A DNA stretch of 64,000 bases. Source: Pseudomonadota bacterium (GTDB taxonomy: Archaea; Thermoplasmatota; SW-10-69-26; JACQPN01; JAJPHT01). Within the stretch, counting starts at the first letter, position 1. Each line of letters begins with the position of its first letter. Below the pieces are notes generated by a model. That model saw nothing but the letters and a program-made list of their open reading frames with translations. It was not told where the DNA came from and did not search any database. The stretch covers positions 32,001 to 96,000 of the forward strand of contig JAJPHT010000026.1 in NCBI GenBank assembly GCA_021325135.1. The letters run 5' to 3'. This document shows positions 5,919-39,074 of the stretch, piece after piece. Position numbers and translations under genes: made by a program.

Positions 5919-7289
5919 TTATAAGGGTTCGGCGCTCAGGAGCGCCCCCGCCGTGTCGAACGAGCGTCCGTCCTTCGTGGTGGTCCACACGGCGAAAGCG
6001 CCCGCGGGCCCGGCGGCGAGGCCGAGGTAGTCGCCCAGGGACGAGGGGGGCGCTGCGATGTCCGGGTCCAGCGTGAGGTCGGCGCGCCACGAGCCGGGCC
6101 GCAGCGCGACCGCCATCATCCGCGCCCCCTGCGCGGTGGCGTGGGCGAACGTGACGTAGACGACGCCGCGCGCGTCCGCCGCCACCGAGGGGAGGATGCG
6201 GCCGGGCGCCTCGGGTTGGTCCAGCGGGAGGGGCGCGGTCCACGTCGCGCCGCCGTCGTCCGACCACGAGAGGGTGGGCGCGTGCGGGACGCTCTCCATC
6301 TCGCCGGACGCCTGGGGCGCGGGCGCCACGAGAAGGACGCGCTCCCGCCCGCTCTCCCGCGCCACGGCGAGGGAGGGCATCCAGTCGGCGGGCGCGACGG
6401 CACGGTCGGTCCACGTCGCGCCCTGGTCGCGGGAGGCTGCGACGTGGGCCGTGCGCGCGGCGAGGTCCACGTACCCGACGTACCAGGCGCCCTCCGAGCC
6501 GATGGCCGGAGCCGAGCCCTGGAGGTCGGCGCCGCGGGCGACGAAGCCGGGCGCGCTCCACGAGCGGCCGCCGTCGCGGGAGACGACGAAGGCGATGTCG
6601 GAACGCCTCGCGGGCGCGGAGGGCTCGCCCCCGGCGATGTCCGTGTAGGTGAGCAGCGCCGTGCCGTCGGGCCCCGTGGCGAGCCACGGCTTGTCGGGCG
6701 TGCGGAAGAGGGGCGGGGACGGGAGCGGCACGGGGAGCGAGGCCTCTGCGCCCGCGCCCTGGCTGCGCGCGACGGTCACGGGCTCCTCGAAGTGGCGGCC
6801 CCCGTCGGGCGACCTCACCGAGTAGAGCCGCACGTCCGTGAGGACGCCGCCGCCCGGCGTCGAGACGTAGCGCAGCGTGGCGCCCGTGGCCAGGAGCGTG
6901 CCGTCCGGCAGGAACGCCAGCACGGGGTCGCCCACGACGTTGGGCGCGGTGGGGTCCGAGGGGGTGCCCATGGGCTCCGTGTAGCGCAGCTCGGTGACGT
7001 TCCACGTGCGGCCCCCGTCGCGGGAGTCGTGCACGTCGAACCAGAGCACGTAGTTCACCGGGAGCGTGGCCGCCAGCGTGCGCGTGGCCACCACGACGTG
7101 CTGCGGGTCGAGCGGGTCGACCGCCGCGTGGGGCTCCCAGCCGGAGTGGGCCGTCGCATCGATGGGCAGCTTGCACGGGCCCACGCACGAGAAGGAGGGG
7201 GCGTCGGTGGCGGCCGGCCGCAGGGGGGCCCCGACGCAGCCGGGCAGGAGGAGGACGAGGATCGACGCCGCCAGCAGGCCGCGCAACAA
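5919..7289 (-). CDS. Lipoprotein with BNR/Asp-box repeats (sialidase-like beta-propeller)
   Basis: Lipobox LLLPGC; repeated S-x-D-x-G-x-x-W/F boxes (SRDGGRTW, SPDGGRHF, SRDGGRSW, SRDQGATW, SDDGGATW); DKPW and GDY motifs. Confidence 0.8.
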   Translation of the reverse strand: MLRGLLAASILVLLLPGCVGAPLRPAATDAPSFSCVGPCKLPIDATAHSGWEPHAAVDPLDPQHVVVATRTLAATLPVNYVLWFDVHDSRDGGRTWNVTELRYTEPMGTPSDPTAPNVVGDPVLAFLPDGTLLATGATLRYVSTPGGGVLTDVRLYSVRSPDGGRHFEEPVTVARSQGAGAEASLPVPLPSPPLFRTPDKPWLATGPDGTALLTYTDIAGGEPSAPARRSDIAFVVSRDGGRSWSAPGFVARGADLQGSAPAIGSEGAWYVGYVDLAARTAHVAASRDQGATWTDRAVAPADWMPSLAVARESGRERVLLVAPAPQASGEMESVPHAPTLSWSDDGGATWTAPLPLDQPEAPGRILPSVAADARGVVYVTFAHATAQGARMMAVALRPGSWRADLTLDPDIAAPPSSLGDYLGLAAGPAGAFAVWTTTKDGRSFDTAGALLSAEPL

Positions 7290-7448
7290 GCCACCAGGCA
7301 GGGAATCGAGGGGTCGAGCTTGGCCTTGACGGGTGGACCCGGATAGGCTCTCCCGAAGGTTGTCGACCCGCCGCGTGACACGGAATCGGCCATGCGGCGG
7401 CGCGTCGAAGGGAGGCCGGGAAGGCTCAGCGCCAGGGAGGGGAAGGCG

Positions 7449-10400
7449 TTGCTACAGAAGATTCTCGTGATCCTTGTCGGGCTCGTCATGTCGCTGGTGG
7501 GCGCGTTCGCGCCCAGCTCCAGCCTGTTCGCCTCGCACCCCGCGCCGGACGCCGGCTTGAGCCTCGCGTCCTCGGCCGCGCACGACGAGACGCTGGCCAC
7601 GGTGCGCGTGGCCGACGGCACCGCCTTCGCCAAGGTCAGCGTCCTCTGGGTCGAGGTCGACGGCCAGCGCGTCAGCGAGGACGCCTGGGGCACGGGCGAC
7701 GTGAAGGAGCTTCGCTTTAAAATTGGCACCAAGGACGTCGACGGCCTCGCCCTCGCCGTGGGCGACAAGGTGATCGCGGTCCACCCCACCGACGTGCTCA
7801 CCGTGCGCACCTTCAACGGCCAGTTCGCGTACCGCGGCCTGGGCACGCCCGCCGCCACCCTCGCGCTCCAGGGCACCGTGAAGACGGCGCTGGTGAGCCA
7901 GGGCGCCGCGACGCAGCGCGTGCAGACCGAGGCGGCCGCGCCGCGCGTCGCGCAGCCGGCCCCCGCCGACGGCCGCCTCGCCTACGTCGTCCTCGACACG
8001 GGCGAGCATCTCGACACCGTGGACGTGCAGTCCACCTCGCAGCGCTTCTACACCGAGGAGACGGCGGCCACGTCCCCCCAGCCCGGCAATCTCCTCGCGC
8101 GCTACGTGAAGATCGACGGCCGCCTCGTGAAGGACTACACCAGCGGCGACGGCAGCCTGGGCACCATCGAGTTCCAGCCCGCCGCGGCGGACACCGCGGG
8201 CGGCCTCGTCGCCGTGGACGGCCAGCCCGCCACCGTCGACGCCAACGCCAAGGTCCTCGTCAAGGACTTCGTGGGCGAGTACCTCGTCTACCAGGTGGCC
8301 GACGGCCTCGTGCGCCTGCGCCTCGACGGCTACGCCGCCAACTACACCACCGGGGACGCCGCGAGCCTCCCCGCGTCGGCGGGCGCGGACGTCCTCAACG
8401 CCGCGTTCGACTTCGAGCCCAAGAGCCCGCGCACGTCCGACACCCTCGCGTTCCACGACCGCTCCTCCGCCGAGGGCTACGTCGTCTTCCGCCAGTGGGA
8501 CTTCGGCGACAACCAGACCAGCGTCGTCTCCGACCCCACGCACCGCTACGCCCTCCCCGGCGTCTACGAGGTGCGCCTCAACGTCACCGACAACGACCTC
8601 CACCAGCGCGAGGTCGTCATCCCGGTCATCGTGCGCAACGCCGACCCCGTGCCCGCCTTCGACTTCGCCCCGCGCGTCGTCGACACCGGCACCCTCGTCG
8701 CGTTCACCGACCGCAGCGACGACGCCGACGGCGCGGTCGTCAACTGGAGCTGGGACTTCGGCGACGGCGCCCACGCCTTCCAGCGCAACCCCACCCACCA
8801 GTACCAGGCCGCCGGCAACCTCACCGTCACCCTCACCGCCACCGACAACCTCGGCGGCCGCCAGAGCCTCTCGCGCGTCATCATCGTGCGCGACGCGCCC
8901 CCCCTGGCCAACTTCGTCTTCGAGCCCACCGACGCGCAGACGCTCACCCCCGTGCAGTTCATCGACCGCTCCACCGACCGCGACGGCGTCGTCGTCGCCT
9001 GGAACTGGAGCTTCGGCGACGGCTCCTACGCCGAAGGCAGCGCGCCCACGCACACGTTCGAGAAGCCCGGCGCCTACTCCGTGAGCCTCACGGCCTACGA
9101 CAACAACGGCGTCGCCAGCACGCTCACGCAGCAGGTCATCGCCCTCAACCGGCCGCCCGTCGCGGACTTCGCGTGGACGCCCCAGGGCGGCCCCGTGAAC
9201 GTCCCCGTCACGTTCACCAGCACCTCCTACGACCCCGAGGGGCTGCCGCTGATCACGCAGTGGGACTTCGGCGACGGAAGCTCGGGCTCCCTGGGCCCCA
9301 CGGCGCAGCACGTCTTCCCGCGCCACGGCGAATACAACGTCACCGTCCACGTCACCGACGGCCTCGCGCAGACCTCGCTCACGCGCTCCGTCTCCGTCGC
9401 CGACAGCGCGCCCCGCGCGAGCCTGAGCCTCACGCCCAACCCCGCCTACCGCGGCACGGTGGTCCTCTTCGCCGACACCAGCACCGACCTCGACGGCGAC
9501 CCCATCGTCGCGCGCTCGTGGAGCTTCGGCGACGGCCAGACCAGCACGCTGGCGTTCCCCAACCACACGTATTCCGCGCTGGGCGACTACCCCATCACGC
9601 TCACCGTGCGCGACGGCGCCAACATGTCGTCCTTCGTGACGACCACGCTGCACGTCATCAACCGCCCGCCCATCGGCGCCGCGCGCTTCTCGCCCGCGCT
9701 CCCCGTCGCGCGGCAGCTCATCACGCTGGACGCCACGGCCACCGACCCCGACGGCCCCGCCAACGAGACGTTCACCTACGCGTGGACCTTCTCCGACGGC
9801 GGCGCCCCCGCCAGCGGCCCCGAGGTCACCCACGCCTTCCAGGCCACCGGAGACTACACCGTCACCCTCGTCGTCACCGACGCGGAAGGGGGCGTCAGCT
9901 CGCCGGTCCTCACGCGCATCCACGTCGGCCTCGCCGATCCCCTGCCCGCGTTCACCTGGAATCCGCTGATCCCCAACGCGGGCGAGACCGTCACCTTCAC
10001 CGACCAGTCCACGAGCCCCAACGGCGCCATCCAGTCGTGGGCGTGGGACTTCGGCGATGGCTCCCCCGAGTCCGGCGCGCGCAACCCCACGCACGCCTTC
10101 CCCAGCGACCAGGTCTACGCGGTGCTCCTCACCGTCACCGACTCCGAGGGCCAGCTGGCCACCACCGCGCAGAACGTCACCGTGAACGGTTTCCCCGTCG
10201 CGGCGTTCGTGGCGCCCACGGCGCCCCTCTCCGCGGGCGGCGTCGCGCAGTTCACCGACGAGTCGCACGACCCCGACGGCGACGCGCTCACCTACGCGTG
10301 GGACTTCGGCGACGGCGCCCACAGCACCGCGCAGAACCCCTCGCACCCCTACCTGTCGCCCGGCGCCTACACCGCGCGCCTCACCGTCACCGACCCCCAC

Positions 10401-11595: not shown

Positions 11596-12315
11596 GTGCG
11601 GGCCCCCGACCCCGAGGCCATCGAGCGCGCCGCCCCGTGGCTGCGCAAGGTGCGCGCCTACTGCCGCGTCCAGGTGGAGGGCGTGGAGAAGATCCCCCAG
11701 GGCCCCTGCATCCTCGCCGCGAACCACACCGGCTGGGCCGGCATCGACTACTGGAACCTCTTCATCACCGTCTACGACGACGCGAAGCGCATCCCCCGCG
11801 TCGCGGTCCACCCGTCGTACTTCCGCTTCAAGAAGGTGCGCGACCTCGCCGACCAATTGGGCTTCTTCGAGGTGAGCGTCGCCACCAGCACGGAGATCCT
11901 TGACGAGGGTGGCCTCGTGACCTTCTTCCCCGAGGCGGAGGAGGGGAACTTCAAGCCCATCTGGAAACGATATCGCCTCCAGCCCTTCAAGCCCGGCTTC
12001 GCCCGCGTCGCGCTGGCCACCGAGGCGCCCGTCGTCCCCGTCGTCATCGTGGGCGGCGAGGAGGCGAACCCCACGCTGGGGCGCCTCAAGCCGCTGGAGG
12101 AGGTCCTCCAGGCGCCCGTGCCCATCCCGGTGAACCTGCTGCCCTTCCCCGTGAAGTGGCGCATCGCCTTCCTCGACCCCGTGAGCCCCTCCACCTACCT
12201 GGAGCGCGAGAGCCCCGACAAGGACGTCGCGGAATTGATGGCGCGCGACCTGCGCCACCGCATGCAGGACGCCTTGGACGAGCAGGTCCGCAAGCGCGGG
12301 CACCCGATCCTGTAG
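11596..12315 (+). CDS. Lysophospholipid/glycerolipid acyltransferase (PlsC/LPLAT superfamily)
   Basis: Block I ILAANH...D, block III FFPEAEEG, FKPGFARVAL..APVVPV..VGGEE. Confidence 0.82.
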   Translation: MRAPDPEAIERAAPWLRKVRAYCRVQVEGVEKIPQGPCILAANHTGWAGIDYWNLFITVYDDAKRIPRVAVHPSYFRFKKVRDLADQLGFFEVSVATSTEILDEGGLVTFFPEAEEGNFKPIWKRYRLQPFKPGFARVALATEAPVVPVVIVGGEEANPTLGRLKPLEEVLQAPVPIPVNLLPFPVKWRIAFLDPVSPSTYLERESPDKDVAELMARDLRHRMQDALDEQVRKRGHPIL

Positions 12316-22453: not shown

Positions 22454-22526
22454 TGCCGTGGGCCGGGCTCGAACCGGCGACCTTGGGATTATGAGTCCCA
22501 CGCGCTACCAGCTGCGCCACCACGGC
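22454..22526 (-). tRNA. tRNA-Met(CAT), elongator-type, intron-less, no encoded CCA
   Basis: GCCGTGG/CCACGGC acceptor stem, anticodon arm TGGGA-CTCATAA-TCCCA, T arm GCCGG-TTCGAGC-CCGGC, discriminator A; G1-C72 and A31-U39 argue against initiator; TTCAAATA box upstream. Confidence 0.93.
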
Positions 22527-33865: not shown

Positions 33866-35323
33866 ATGGGACGCAAGCAGGAGAACTTCTCCGAGTGGTA
33901 CAACGAGCTGGTCGAGAAGGCCGACCTCATCGACAAGCGCTACCCCATCAAGGGCATGGACGTCTGGAGGCCCTACGGCCTCAGCATCATGCGCGCCATC
34001 GACCGCTACACCCACGAGGAGATGGCCCGCACCAGACACCAGGAGGTGCAGTTCCCCCTCTTCATCCCGCAGACGGAGTTCAACAAGGAGGCCGAGCAGA
34101 TCAAGGGCTTCGGCGGCGAGGTCTACTGGGTGACCAAGGGCGGCAACAACGACCTGGACGTCCCCCTGGTCGTGCGCCCCACCTCCGAGACGGCGATGTA
34201 CCCCATGTTCAGCCTGTGGGTGCGCTCGCACAAGGACCTGCCCCTCAAGGTCTACCAGATCGTCTCCGTGTTCCGCTACGAAACGAAGCAGACGCGCTCG
34301 TTCATCCGCGTGCGCGAGATCCACTTCTTCGAGGCGCACACCGCGCACGACACCTACGAGGACGCCGAACGGCAGATCCACGAGGACGTGCAGATCTGGG
34401 CGCGCCTCGCGGAGAGGCTCTGCCTGCCCTACGTGCTCAGCAAGAGGCCCGACTGGGACAAGTTCCCCGGCGCGCACTACTCGGTGGCCGCGGACGCCAT
34501 GCTCCCCGAGCTCAAGACGCTCCAGGTCGCGACGTTCCACCACTACAAGGACAACTTCGCGAAGGCCTACGACATCAAGTACGAGTCGCAGGACTCCACG
34601 CACGTCTTCGCGCACCAGACGACCTACGGCATGAGCGAGCGCCTGCTGGGCGCCATCATCAGCGTGCACGGCGACGACAAGGGCCTCATGCTGCCCCCCG
34701 CCGTCGCGCCGCACCAGGCCGTCATCGTCCCCATCCTGTTCAAGGGCAAGGAGGCCGGCGTCATGGACGCCGCGCGCCACCTGGCGAACCTCCTCCTCGC
34801 CGCGGGCTTCCGCGTCCACGTGGACGACCGCGAGGAGACGGCGGGCTTCAAGTTCAACGACTGGGAGATGCGCGGCGTGCCCGTCCGCATCGAGCTGGGC
34901 CCCAAGGACGTCGAGAAGGCCCAGTGCGTCATGGTGCGCCGCGACAACGGCCAGAAGAGCTTCGTCGCGCAGGCCGACGCCGCCAAGGGGCTCGCCGAGA
35001 CGCTGGCCTCCTACGCCGACGGCCTCGTGAGCCGGGCGTGGAAGACCATGACCGAGAACGTCCGCGACGTCAAGACCGCCGAGGAGGCCAAGACCGTCTC
35101 CGGCATCGCCCGCGCCGGCTGGTGCGGCAGCGACGAGTGCGGCCAGAAGATCCAGGCCGTCACCGAGAAGACCGTCCTGGGCGTGCCCCTGGACGTGGCC
35201 TTCCCCTCCTTCAAGGAGGAGGCCCACGGCAAGCTCGTCCTCCCGGGCAAGGGCTTCTCGGGCCACTGCGCGGCGTGCGGGAAGGCGACGACGACGCCGG
35301 TGCACATCGCGAAGACGTACTGA
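33866..35323 (+). CDS. proS: Prolyl-tRNA synthetase, archaeal/eukaryotic type
   Basis: FSEWY, RPTSET, WVRSHKDLP, FRYETKQTRSFIRVREI, GDDKGL.LPP, C-terminal Zn site WCG...C..C. Confidence 0.95.
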   Translation: MGRKQENFSEWYNELVEKADLIDKRYPIKGMDVWRPYGLSIMRAIDRYTHEEMARTRHQEVQFPLFIPQTEFNKEAEQIKGFGGEVYWVTKGGNNDLDVPLVVRPTSETAMYPMFSLWVRSHKDLPLKVYQIVSVFRYETKQTRSFIRVREIHFFEAHTAHDTYEDAERQIHEDVQIWARLAERLCLPYVLSKRPDWDKFPGAHYSVAADAMLPELKTLQVATFHHYKDNFAKAYDIKYESQDSTHVFAHQTTYGMSERLLGAIISVHGDDKGLMLPPAVAPHQAVIVPILFKGKEAGVMDAARHLANLLLAAGFRVHVDDREETAGFKFNDWEMRGVPVRIELGPKDVEKAQCVMVRRDNGQKSFVAQADAAKGLAETLASYADGLVSRAWKTMTENVRDVKTAEEAKTVSGIARAGWCGSDECGQKIQAVTEKTVLGVPLDVAFPSFKEEAHGKLVLPGKGFSGHCAACGKATTTPVHIAKTY

Positions 35324-35528
35324 GGCTTCTTGGGGTCGGGCCGACCCCTCCATCTGAAATCCCTCAGCGTAGCCGCTGTTCCGATGGAGTCTCGTTCACC
35401 GGAAGCGCACGATGCATAGACCCACCGGTTCCATCGGAACCAGCCGATGCATATAGCGCACCGGTCGCGGTTTCGACTTATTAGAACGCTTCCGCCGAAA
35501 ATGATATCGCCACCGCGCGCGTAGTAGG

Positions 35529-36148
35529 GGTTGCCTCCTTGGAGGCGCAACGCGCGCAGGCGCCAAGGCCGGACCCGGCGACGGGGCTGGACGAAGCGTC
35601 TGCGGAACGACGCCGGCTCGGCATGCGCCGCCCCGACACGCGATTCGAACGCGGGGACGGGCACACGCGCGCGCCGGCGGGGCAGCCGCAACTCGAGCGA
35701 AGGACTGCCCGCCCCCGTCCGCAAGGGCCCGGGTCCGTTCAACCGCCCCCTCCGGAACCCGCCGGCGAACCACCCCGGCTTCGGAGGAACACGCCACGAA
35801 CCCGCCGAACTGACGGCAGGCCGCGCGTCCGTGTGATGGATCGCGGCCCATCGCAGACCGGCGCTGATCTCAGCGCCCCTGCGACCCCCTCCGACGCGCG
35901 AGCGTCGGGGAGCCCCGGCAAGCATGCACCGTGGAGCCGGGGGCCGGCCGAGGCCTGGCCAGGCCAAGGCGGCGGGACGGGTTCTCCCCGCTCGTAGCCG
36001 AGCGGGGACGACCGGCCAGCCCCACCCCCGTGGGGCCCGCCACCGGACAAGCCTCGTGCCGAGGGAGTCCGGAGCGCCCGCGCCCCGCGCGGGAGGACCG
36101 GTCGGTGGCAGGCGGCTCCGCGTCGCGCCTCCAGGAAGAGCACCTTTT
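35529..36148 (+). ncRNA. Candidate large structured non-coding RNA (~620 nt), family unknown
   Basis: ATGATAT box at 35501; 5' end 35532-35554 pairs with 3' end 36119-36142; more than 12 internal stems; TTTT at 36145-36148; no ORF with host codon bias. Confidence 0.6.
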
Positions 36149-36205
36149 CCGTGCCCACCTGGCCTCGTCGGGGAATAAATACGTGCGAGCCGGTGGTGGA
36201 TCCCC

Positions 36206-37051
36206 GTGCGCGTCCTGCCCTTCGCGCTGCTGGCCTTCCTGGCCGCGGCCCTGGCGCTTCCGAGCCCCTTCGCCCTCTGGGCCCTGAGGCCTGTGCCCGA
36301 TCCGCACCAGGCGTACCTCGACGCCCGGATGCTCGCCTCCGCCGCGCGCGTCGTGGCCGCGATTCTCTTCCTGGCGGGCGCGGTCGCGCTGGCCTTCGCG
36401 GTGCGGCGCGGAGAGGCTGCGCTCCCGCGGGCGCTTCCCGTCCTCGCCCTGGCGAGCCTTGCCCTGGGCGGCGCGCTCCTGAGCCCCTGGGGTTCCAGCC
36501 TCGCGACGGACTCGATCCACGAGCGCTACGAGCGCGGGGGCTTCCTGAAGCCCTACCCGGACGTGGACCTCGCCCGCGGCCCGCTGCCCAACGAGACGTA
36601 CTTCGCCTTCACCGGATCGCGCGAGGTCTCCAACGTGACCGCGCCCATCGACGTGGGGCCCGTCCACGCGCGCCGGGGGGACGTGTGGGACGTCGGGACG
36701 AGGGGCGACGGAGCGGGATGGCCGGGCGACGGTCGCCCCGCGATCTCCAGCGACTTGCCCCTGCGCTGCGTTCCCGGCCCCTTCCTCGACGAGAGGAGCG
36801 ACGCGCGCTCGCCCCTCGTCGTCTCATGGTGGCGCTGCGTCGCGCTCGCCTCCGGCGACGCGAGGGTGCAGGTCTCCCTGCCAGGGCCTGCGCCTGGAAC
36901 CGTCGTCGTGCTCGTGAACGTCCTCCCCAGCCTGGATGCAGCGGTCGCGACCACGCTCGCGCGGTCGGAGGCCCTCCTTGCGCTTGGCGTCGCGGCCGCG
37001 GCGGGCGCGGGCGCGTGGGCCGTGAAGAGGCGCGAATCCCGTCCGCGCTGA
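36206..37051 (+). CDS. Hypothetical membrane protein (281 aa)
   Basis: Three N-terminal TM segments, soluble region, C-terminal TM; AATAAATA box about 30 nt upstream. Confidence 0.6.
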   Translation: MRVLPFALLAFLAAALALPSPFALWALRPVPDPHQAYLDARMLASAARVVAAILFLAGAVALAFAVRRGEAALPRALPVLALASLALGGALLSPWGSSLATDSIHERYERGGFLKPYPDVDLARGPLPNETYFAFTGSREVSNVTAPIDVGPVHARRGDVWDVGTRGDGAGWPGDGRPAISSDLPLRCVPGPFLDERSDARSPLVVSWWRCVALASGDARVQVSLPGPAPGTVVVLVNVLPSLDAAVATTLARSEALLALGVAAAAGAGAWAVKRRESRPR

Positions 37052-37737: not shown

Positions 37738-38541
37738 CTATCGCTCCTCGCGCCATCGGACAAGCTCCTGCGCGAAGCGCGCCGGCTGCTCCAGCTCGGG
37801 GAAGTGGCCCGCGTCCTCCAGCACGACCACCTTCGCGCGGGGCGCGTGGCGGCGGAGCCCTTGGGGGTCGCTGCCGCGGTGCGTGCGGTCCCTGGCGCCC
37901 CACACGGCCAGCACGGGCAGGTCCGTGGGGGGCGGGGGCGCGGCGCGCTCCAGGGCGCGGAAGGCGGCGGCGAGGGGGAAGCGCGCGCCGTGGTCGAACG
38001 ACTCGACGGCCAGCGCGCCGAAGGCGTCGCCCGCCTCGCGGGTGGGGAGCGCGGCGCGGTACCACGAGCGGGCGATCTCCGGGGCGCGCACGTAGCCCAG
38101 CGCGGGGCCCACGAGGGGCGCGCGCAGCGCGCGGCGCCTGTCGACGCGGTCGATCCACCGCAGCGCGTCGTCCCACGCAGGGGCCTGGAGGGCGACCAGC
38201 GAGTCCACGAGGTCGGGCCGCGCGGCCGCGACGCGCAGCGCGACGTAGGCGCCCACGCAGGGCAGCGCCAGGGTGCACGGCCCCAGGGCGAGCTTGTCCA
38301 GGAGGGCGATGGTCGCCTCCGCCTGCGCGTCGGGGGACTGCCCCGCGCCGCGGGCGGCCTTGGAGTGGCCGAACCCCACGGGCTCGAAGGCGACGACGCG
38401 CGCGTGGGGGCGCAGCGCGACCATGAGGGGGCCGTACTGCTCCAGCACGTTGGGCGGGTCCGTCGCCAGCACGAGCGGAGGCCCCTGGCCCGCCTGCCGC
38501 AGGCGGACGGAGCCCTGGGGGATCGCGACCTGGCGGATCAT
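37738..38541 (-). CDS. Alpha/beta-fold hydrolase with atypical nucleophile elbow (LPCVG)
   Basis: G.GPPLVL, VVAFEPVGFGHS, PVLAVWGARD, DAGHFPELEQP. Confidence 0.8.
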   Translation of the reverse strand: MIRQVAIPQGSVRLRQAGQGPPLVLATDPPNVLEQYGPLMVALRPHARVVAFEPVGFGHSKAARGAGQSPDAQAEATIALLDKLALGPCTLALPCVGAYVALRVAAARPDLVDSLVALQAPAWDDALRWIDRVDRRRALRAPLVGPALGYVRAPEIARSWYRAALPTREAGDAFGALAVESFDHGARFPLAAAFRALERAAPPPPTDLPVLAVWGARDRTHRGSDPQGLRRHAPRAKVVVLEDAGHFPELEQPARFAQELVRWREER

Positions 38542-38954
38542 TGATATCGCGAGACGAGGGCCGCGAGGGCGCGCTTCTGCTCGGGCCACGAGAGGCGCGT
38601 CTCCGCCTCGGCGGCGCTCACCCACTCGGCGCCGGTGTGCTCGTCGCTCAGGGCCTCGGTGACGCCGGGCTCGACGCGCGCCGCGTAGGCCGTCTCGTGA
38701 TAGCGCCCCTTGCGCGGGCCGTCCTTCAGCTCGTAGGTGAAGGTCACGCCCAGGGGCTCGGGGGAGACGTCGAAGCCCGTCTCCTCGTCCACCTCGCGCA
38801 CGGCGGCGTTGAGGAGGCCCTCGTGCGCCTCGACGTTGCCCGTGACGGGGTGCCAGAGCCCCTTCTCGGTCTTCGCGCGCTTCAGGAGCAGGATGCGGAG
38901 GCCGTCGGGCGTCTTGCGGTAGAGGAAGACCTGGACCTTCCGGCGCAGGGGCAT
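38538..38954 (-). CDS. NUDIX hydrolase (NudB/dihydroneopterin triphosphate pyrophosphatase-like)
   Basis: W.PVTGNVE..E....AAVREV.EETG; LS.EH....W. Confidence 0.85.
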   Translation of the reverse strand: MPLRRKVQVFLYRKTPDGLRILLLKRAKTEKGLWHPVTGNVEAHEGLLNAAVREVDEETGFDVSPEPLGVTFTYELKDGPRKGRYHETAYAARVEPGVTEALSDEHTGAEWVSAAEAETRLSWPEQKRALAALVSRYQ

Positions 38955-39074
38955 GGCAACGGCAAGCCTGGCGGGGGGCTTGAAGGTGGCCCTTCGCGGC
39001 CCACGCCCCCGGGCGGCGCGGGCGCCGCTGGAAAAGCCAAGGCATCGTCAAGAGGCAGGGCCCTTCAGGCGCCC

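Follow-up and report, generated by a model that had tools for sequence, protein, structure and literature searches.

A gene for a large structured non-coding RNA in an archaeon of the Thermoplasmatota

The stretch of DNA analysed here (the window, 64,000 nt, corresponding to G000:C49:32001-96000) belongs to a metagenome-assembled genome of 3.77 Mb in 51 contigs. We conclude with high confidence that it contains a free-standing gene for a conserved, structured non-coding RNA (ncRNA) of about 620-645 nt, which lies on the plus strand and runs from about 35505 or 35531 to 36148. The statement that we favour as a whole, and regard as likely, is that this gene produces a stable and abundant ncRNA that acts in trans as a scaffold. 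As a sequence and structure family the RNA is new to Rfam, and as a kind of molecule it sits beside OLE, ROOL and GOLLD.

The RNA gene and its conservation within the genus

Between the proS gene (33866-35323), whose product has the ProRS domains, and the next gene that shows host-like codon usage (36179-37051) lie 855 nt. The genes of the window have a G+C content of 0.89-0.99 at third codon positions (GC3) and 0.40-0.59 at second codon positions (GC2), whereas the stop-to-stop frames of 35400-36200 are all flat, with 0.61-0.87 at all three codon positions. As this stretch lacks the GC3 bias of the local genes, it has a non-coding appearance, and the absence of a coding signal from its shadow open reading frames, as read in the initial annotation, extends to every frame. 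The RNA region has a G+C content of 74-80% and contains well more A than T.

On the plus strand, the 620-nt sequence folds at -384.9 kcal/mol compared with -337.6 +/- 8.2 kcal/mol in dinucleotide shuffles (z = -5.8), with none of 20 shuffles being as good, so that the high degree of structure claimed in the initial annotation lies well beyond the shuffled controls. The minus strand gives z = -3.8 against the same kind of control. In the comparative model, A makes up 21-27% of the unpaired and 6-11% of the paired positions, and each copy of the RNA contains three to seven GNRA tetraloops on the plus strand. G.U cells outnumber A.C cells in this model (51 against 24) and this excess, taken together with the promoter and the T-tract, assigns the RNA to the plus strand.

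The RNA was found to be present in four of the five species of the genus (G000, G001, G002 and G003). BLAST retrieved a full-length copy from contig C286 of G003 and two copies in tandem, 82-84% identical and each with the same upstream region, from contig C25 of G001. The copy in G002 (contig C12) is more divergent and was identified by a weak covariance-model match followed by direct reading, while a family profile search of the G000 genome gave a single copy. G004 (88% complete) and the other searched genomes gave no copy, a result that at this sensitivity does not show absence. A sixth, distant copy in G013, a genome from a different family of the same order, is described further below. 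The RNA is 54-61% identical between species (about 57%) and the ProRS of the relatives ~80% identical; the RNA sequence drifts fast while the base pairs persist. The two tandem copies of G001 (L012:6046-6842 and 7206-7999) differ at eight pairs by retained double changes, and since these pairs were kept, both copies seem to be under structural constraint.

Compensatory changes are abundant in these homologues, which strengthens the structured RNA first proposed from a single sequence. The changes were counted in an anchored MAFFT alignment of five sequences with an RNAalifold consensus of 204 pairs, where the controls were obtained by sliding the 3' partner by 1-3 columns. Canonical cells made up 85% of the consensus pairs compared with 35-42% in the slid controls, and 65 of the 204 pairs showed compensatory double changes compared with 10-18 in the controls. 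Between any two species, 16-26 pairs are kept through double changes. The 5' module was treated separately in a six-sequence alignment fitted to model R2 (promoter, P1 and P2; see below) with 500 shuffles. This alignment, being of the cmalign type and therefore biased towards its own model, showed 87.6% paired cells (69.0% in the shuffles) and both-side changes in 22 of 34 pairs (9.0 +/- 2.1 in the shuffles), with no shuffle reaching the observed value in either measure.

Parts of 35400-36200 occur in 24 public runs, and several studies contributed the fifteen RNA libraries among them. Four of these libraries, each from a different study (X2, X3, X6 and X23), all of them soil metatranscriptomes, were compared with the window over 34900-36800 using Logan contigs (Table 1). 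The contigs of 170-561 nt all lie inside 35551-36148 and none extends to the flanking genes, which are represented in these runs only by pieces of ~35 nt with 3-5 mismatches; the uncovered 35156-35539 and most of 36180-36800 are not in themselves evidence of silence. Because carry-over of DNA would also cover the flanks, a stable and abundant transcript is the simplest reading of these contigs.

The variants seen in the RNA runs behave like an RNA under structural constraint. Four double changes in the X23 variant keep four of the seven pairs of the hairpin at 35860-35877, and both X2 and X3 carry G35990>T together with C36003>A, which converts a G-C pair of the 10-bp hairpin to U-A. A loop change found in two RNA runs (G35900>A) turns the GCGA tetraloop of the hairpin at 35889-35910 into GCAA. 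X23 also contains a 251-nt contig at a depth of 187 that matches only 84 nt of the 5' domain (window 35603-35686) with 12 mismatches, and this contig may belong to another relative of the RNA that is more abundant.

The genes around the RNA differ between genomes. The neighbours in G000 are proS, a membrane-protein gene (36179-37051), a hydrolase gene and a NUDIX gene, and those in G003 are NUDIX and S8e genes, with NUDIX being the sole neighbour that the two have in common. On both G001:C25 and G002:C12, the RNA lies between the lumazine synthase gene (ribH) and an aminotransferase gene, and in G013 it is flanked by MarR and HxlR genes. The differing neighbours (ribH and aminotransferase as against NUDIX) therefore indicate that the RNA gene has relocated at least once within the genus. 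Synteny with proS, which had been proposed as a guide to homologues, is not conserved, as the RNA is absent downstream of proS in four relatives whose ProRS is 80-84% identical. In G003 the RNA is convergent with the neighbouring NUDIX gene and faces its 3' end, while in G001 each of the two tandem copies has its own promoter; the RNA is therefore an independent gene and not a leader. Along with the differing neighbours and the confinement of the RNA-library contigs to the element, these arrangements bear out the independently transcribed large RNA of the initial annotation. No mobility, nuclease, transposase, integrase or reverse-transcriptase gene was found beside any of the six copies.

Structural parts, promoter and 3' end

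The RNA is a multi-domain fold that consists of a closing helix (P1), a long hairpin (P2), a 5' domain, a central domain and 3' hairpins. The features annotated in the window are listed in Table 1.

Table 1. Annotated features of the RNA gene and RNA-library contigs that match it (window positions).
Feature	Position	Strand	Details
Upstream conserved region	35400-35456	+	Two direct repeats: CGGAAGCGCA-CGATGCATAG at 35400-35419 and CGGAACCAGCCGATGCATATAG at 35435-35456
Likely promoter	35472-35497	+	TTCGAC; TTATTAGA (35478-35485, candidate TATA box); TTCCGCCG (35490-35497)
ATGATAT, TATA-like	35501-35507	+	Kept as CGATAT/CGATTT in G003 and G002; not in G001 or G013
P1 closing helix, 5' strand	35532-35554	+	Core GGAGGCGCA; pairs with 36119-36142 in the minimum free energy (MFE) fold
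P2 long hairpin	35555-35604	+	GNRA cap GCGA at 35578-35581
5' domain	35605-35741	+	Closed by GAACG (35605-35609) / CGTTC (35737-35741); contains a variable-length region
Central domain	35798-35984	+	Long-range helix GAACCCGCC (35798-35806) / GGCGG..CGGGTTC (35971-35984)
Hairpin GGCGCTG-atct-CAGCGCC	35860-35877	+	Covaries in all relatives
GNRA-capped hairpin, loop GCGA	35889-35910	+	Stem unlike in every lineage; loop GCGA, GAAA or GCAA
Hairpin with self-complementary loop UGGCCA	35952-35965 (loop 35956-35961)	+	Loop identical in five of five genus copies
10-bp hairpin TCCCCGCTCG-tagc-CGAGCGGGGA	35985-36008	+	Covaries among relatives
Linker CGGCCA	36013-36018	+	CGGCC invariant; last base A in most copies, G in G002; 50 nt downstream of the UGGCCA loop
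P1 closing helix, 3' strand	36119-36142	+	Core GCGCCTCC
CC + TTTT	36143-36148	+	Likely archaeal oligo-T terminator and 3' end
X2 contig, 520 nt	35620-36138		11 differences
X3 contig, 239 nt	35569-35807		1 difference
X3 contig, 170 nt	35970-36138		4 differences
X6 contig, 189 nt	35576-35764		0 differences
X6 contig, 213 nt	35989-36148		3 differences
X23 contig, 561 nt	35551-36106		57 differences and 7 gaps; related variant

The two arms of the closing stem had been placed exactly in the initial annotation and they are paired in the MFE fold. The core of P1 is invariant in the five genus copies, and three pairs outside the core vary yet remain paired in G000, G002 and G003. A different 11-bp closing helix is found at the equivalent place in G013. 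The two helices of P2 are 94% and 90% paired in the six-sequence alignment fitted to R2, with both-side changes in six of nine and five of seven pairs respectively. A 9-bp pairing (35570-78/35729-37) that had been drawn across this region was not upheld, as the comparison favours the local GNRA-capped hairpin of P2. Other helices of the same list were found to be kept with compensatory changes, namely GGCGCTG/CAGCGCC, the GCGA hairpin, CCCCGG/CCGGGG, the 10-bp hairpin and the long-range GAACCCG/CGGGTTC.

Most copies close the 5' domain with the helix GAACG/CGUUC, whereas G002 has GAUCG/CGAUC, in which U-A replaces an A-U pair. The inner helix of the same domain is CGCCGGC/GCCGGCG in G000 as opposed to CGCGGAC/GTCCGCG and further variants in the relatives. 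For the long-range GAACCC/GGGUUC helix, the second pair is A-U in G000 and G003, G.U in G001 and G-C in G002. The stem below the UGGCCA loop varies as well and is found as GGCC/GGCC, GCC/GGC or GGGC/GCCC.

A few known motifs were looked for. The internal loop of the terminal helix is symmetric (3 x 5 nt and similar), unlike a bulge-helix-bulge (BHB) motif, in which two 3-nt bulges are offset by 4 bp; no BHB motif is therefore present, and nothing points to circularisation by the splicing endonuclease. Direct reading of the sequences and alignments revealed neither a convincing kink-turn, either in the terminal internal loop or at a conserved GUGUGA hairpin, nor an 11-nt tetraloop receptor.

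About 140 nt upstream of the RNA can be aligned among G000, G003, both copies of G001 and G002 despite the unlike flanking genes. The promoter block TTCG..TTATT(A/T)..T(T/G)CC(G/T)CCG is present in all six copies, with the distant G013 included, and within the genus it is located 62-64 nt ahead of the closing helix. The initial annotation had taken ATGATAT as the TATA box. That word is present at its given position, but the assignment is doubtful as it is not kept in G001 and G013, unlike the TTATT box that lies 23 nt further upstream. TTATTAGA, which is conserved throughout the six copies, is the better TATA candidate, and judged from the sequence it would likely place the transcription start near 35505-35512 rather than at 35530; ATGATAT may be a secondary promoter element. 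The promoter motif occurs only once in the 3.77-Mb genome and is therefore not a general promoter of stable RNA genes. A scan for bacterial-type promoters and terminators gave no match, as expected in an archaeon.

The direct repeats at 35400-35456 may serve as additional promoters or as sites for regulators. A 9-bp inverted repeat (TCCGATGGA at 35380-35388 and TCCATCGGA at 35430-35438) brackets the first of the two direct repeats (CGGAA..GATGCATA); the inverted and direct repeats upstream of the RNA promoter are partly kept in the relatives and may be regulator sites. Words resembling ATGATATCGCC are over-represented in the window: allowing one mismatch, the pattern (A/G)(T/C)GATATCGCC was observed four times (0.19 expected), at window positions 11967, 33358 (minus strand), 35501 and 60385, and may be a word of the promoter or regulator type in this organism.

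All six copies have a T-rich run after the closing helix. In the window, the CC and TTTT reported directly after the closing stem are exact as written. The RNA-library contigs end at 36138 (two studies) and 36148, which is a weak hint only as to the 3' end.

A second RNA was considered for the GC-rich, A-skewed 37744-38541 and was rejected, as this is an alpha/beta hydrolase gene on the minus strand. With ~80% G+C and a strong excess of A over T on the plus strand, the composition of this gene superficially resembles that of the RNA region. The NUDIX gene (38541-39047, minus strand) abuts it.

Relatives beyond the genus and comparison with known RNA families

Model R2, which was built without G003 or G013 and searched across the class, recovered the held-out G003 copy at 62.7 bits and matched one further locus, G013:C313, at 26.2 bits (E = 2e-4 per genome) over the full model. 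The G013 RNA is 747 nt long, is packed with GCAA and GCGA hairpins and folds with z = -8.1. At its locus, the promoter block recurs, the closing helix of 11 bp has another sequence and the tail is T-rich. The two RNAs resemble each other in the promoter architecture TTCG..TTATTTTAG..TTGCCGCCGGCA, in the T-rich tail that comes after a closing helix, in a GNRA-capped first hairpin, and in the order of the motifs CAACCGCC and GGAGGACCGG, both RNAs being found in the same archaeal order. They differ in that the G013 RNA is ~125 nt longer, is much richer in GCAA/GCGA hairpins and has a different closing-helix sequence. The core model R1 did not match G013, and further into the molecule only the short motifs CAACCGCC and GGAGGACCGG are in common. 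On these sequence features, the RNA of the window is probably a shorter, divergent member of a family that includes the 747-nt, GNRA-rich G013 RNA.

Searches for additional members were made at several levels. About 150 further genomes of the phylum gave no further copy at this sensitivity, and R1 had no match outside the genus at the order, class or phylum level. Runs of R1 with the filters off on loci from weak BLAST matches returned noise, and BLAST from the G002 and G013 copies returned only short GC-rich chance matches. The pattern GTGGRRCCGGGG..TGGCCA..GGGTTC was found at 44 genome-contig and 42 metagenome-contig loci, of which only the known contigs are real, the rest being chance occurrences in GC-rich bacteria. 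In viral contigs the same pattern gave one chance match that does not match the covariance model. Among 401 genomes of the phylum, the 5' motif GGAGGCGCA..ACGCGC was accompanied by its 3' partner and the TTATT box only in the four genus species. One locus (L145) was rejected as a homologue because it is a toxin-antitoxin locus.

The novelty proposed in the initial annotation agrees with our comparison with Rfam 15, where 35300-36300 gave no match either at the gathering thresholds or at E<=10. The families covered include OLE, ROOL, GOLLD, raiA, HEARO, group I and II introns, RNase P, the signal recognition particle (SRP) RNA and transfer-messenger RNA (tmRNA). The sole match of cmscan across the whole window was a tRNA (22454-22526), and the homologous loci gave nothing except a sub-threshold match to a plant microRNA that lies outside the RNA. 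The RNase P and SRP motifs had been reported as not found at this locus. The RNase P RNA of the genome is encoded at G000:C34:57542-57927 (RF00373, full model, 68.5 bits) and its SRP RNA at G000:C5:41268-41527 (RF01857, 99.9 bits), so that both identities were rejected for the RNA, with which neither shares similarity. The score of the RNase P RNA is below the Rfam gathering score of 84, a sign that this lineage has a divergent RNase P RNA. The SRP RNA, which matches in two pieces, is located at the extreme end of contig C5. Like the RNA described here, the RNase P and SRP RNAs of archaea are abundant, stable and structured, have terminal helices and are encoded by genes of their own, but the new RNA is about twice as long.

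To our knowledge, the large, intricately folded RNAs of unknown function described so far (OLE, ROOL, GOLLD and raiA) are all bacterial or from phages and form a rare class. No large ornate RNA from archaea or Thermoplasmatota is described in the open-access literature that we searched. The likeness to OLE (RF01071, Bacillota) lies in the length of ~600 nt, the multi-domain fold, high expression and a stand-alone gene. OLE RNA dimerises via a symmetric kissing loop with a GGCC palindrome, L9.3 (PMC12286853). This loop of OLE can be set beside the invariant UGGCCA hairpin loop of the archaeal RNA. The two RNAs differ in that OLE is bacterial, in the absence of sequence or model similarity, and in the much lower conservation of the archaeal RNA (~57% within the genus). 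Genes resembling the OLE partners oapA, oapB and oapC were not found near any copy of the archaeal RNA.

ROOL and GOLLD are large ornate RNAs of bacteria and phages for which RNA-only nanocages have been seen by cryo-electron microscopy (cryo-EM). Like the archaeal RNA, they belong to a size class of ~580-800 nt, contain many hairpins with GNRA or other caps, are closed by long-range helices and have no known function. They differ from it in that the archaeal RNA, which has no Rfam match, is chromosomal and placed among housekeeping genes, not in a prophage or beside tRNA genes. The cages of ROOL and GOLLD are assembled via kissing loops and A-minor contacts (PMC12286853).

Proposed role and competing explanations

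By analogy with OLE, ROOL and GOLLD, the RNA would act in trans as a scaffold, either as the core of a ribonucleoprotein or as an RNA-only assembly. The three to seven GNRA loops of each molecule would make tertiary contacts and the invariant UGGCCA loop would lock the fold, by pairing with the CGGCCA linker or by forming a symmetric kissing dimer. Because the GGCC core is its own complement, a pseudoknot could form between loop and linker, or two molecules could pair through their copies of the loop; by analogy with OLE, the loop may be a kissing loop or pseudoknot element. The A to G change of the linker in G002 would preserve a U.G pair with the loop. A bolder version, which we put forward only tentatively and consider unlikely as it stands, is that the RNA self-assembles into a symmetric RNA-only dimer or higher assembly through the GGCC-centred loop and GNRA contacts, and would then be the first archaeal class of 'ornate' RNA, spanning at least one order of soil Thermoplasmatota.

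Several observations weigh against the scaffold and the gene as described. The covariation is based on five sequences from four species plus one distant copy, and its counts, which carry no significance of the R-scape type, are biased towards a structure that was itself derived from these sequences. The 5' leader is also able to pair locally with the 5' strand of P1, which makes the 5' fold ambiguous; this local pairing may be a folding intermediate. Both GGCC elements are invariant but for the one wobble-compatible change, so that the pseudoknot or dimer is without covariation support. The evidence for homology with the G013 RNA, at 26 bits, comes mainly from the promoter and the first hairpins, and the UGGCCA loop and most of the blocks conserved in the genus are not recognisable there. 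The neighbouring genes give no consistent clue to a function, partner protein or target. Finally, Logan contigs cannot give the ends, strand or level of a transcript, and the empty flanks only make carry-over of DNA unlikely.

Ranked next after the scaffold is a ribozyme: the large conserved fold would form an active site that either processes the ends of the RNA itself or catalyses a reaction in trans. We consider it improbable. Although the size, the multi-domain fold, the GNRA loops and about eleven short genus-invariant blocks resemble RNase P and large introns, and the presence in many RNA libraries fits a housekeeping role, no ribozyme family of Rfam was matched and neither a substrate nor a processing site is evident. 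Few of the conserved blocks persist in the G013 relative, which is unusual for a catalytic core. A good deal less weight is given to a role like that of bridge RNAs or the IscB/TnpB omega RNAs, in which the RNA would guide or scaffold a protein that acts on nucleic acids and is encoded at another locus. Such systems typically have large structured RNAs that combine a conserved scaffold with fast-evolving parts, and the location of the gene does differ among related genomes. However, the copies have no transposase, nuclease, integrase or reverse transcriptase beside them, the RNA is single-copy in G000 and lacks terminal repeats, and HEARO and related Rfam models were not matched. The changes in position between species pairs and the tandem duplication in G001 could also be taken as signs of a relic or non-autonomous mobile element, such as an intron without an open reading frame, a retroelement RNA or part of a provirus. 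This is very unlikely, as the models of group I and II introns were not matched, no host gene is interrupted, the ends carry no repeats, the flanks are housekeeping genes and, but for the one tandem pair, each genome has a single copy; the lone pattern match in a viral contig is a chance one that fails the model.

Two further explanations retain hardly any credibility. A cis-acting role for the RNA, as a leader, riboswitch or attenuator of the membrane-protein gene that follows it (36179-37051), would be in keeping with the RNA lying on the same strand and only ~30-60 nt upstream of that gene. It is largely refuted by the T-tract after the closing helix, by the convergent orientation of the RNA and the NUDIX gene in G003, by the second copy that follows the first in G001, by downstream genes that differ in every genome and by RNA contigs that do not enter the downstream gene. 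A G+C content of 74-80% inflates both chance pairing and long spurious open reading frames, which would favour chance folding of a GC-rich spacer or an unrecognised protein-coding gene. Covariation and composition refute this: the fold is far beyond dinucleotide shuffles, double changes keep pairs at ~57% identity, no frame has the GC3 bias of the local genes, and the element is present in RNA libraries whereas the flanking genes are not.

The scaffold RNA proposed here offers a concrete target for cryo-EM, structure probing and the search for partners, given its clean gene structure, its compensatory evolution and its presence in soil metatranscriptomes of several studies. The link to the G013 RNA suggests a fast-evolving family that is under-detected by sequence searches, and the biology of archaeal RNAs may contain more such molecules than the catalogues show.

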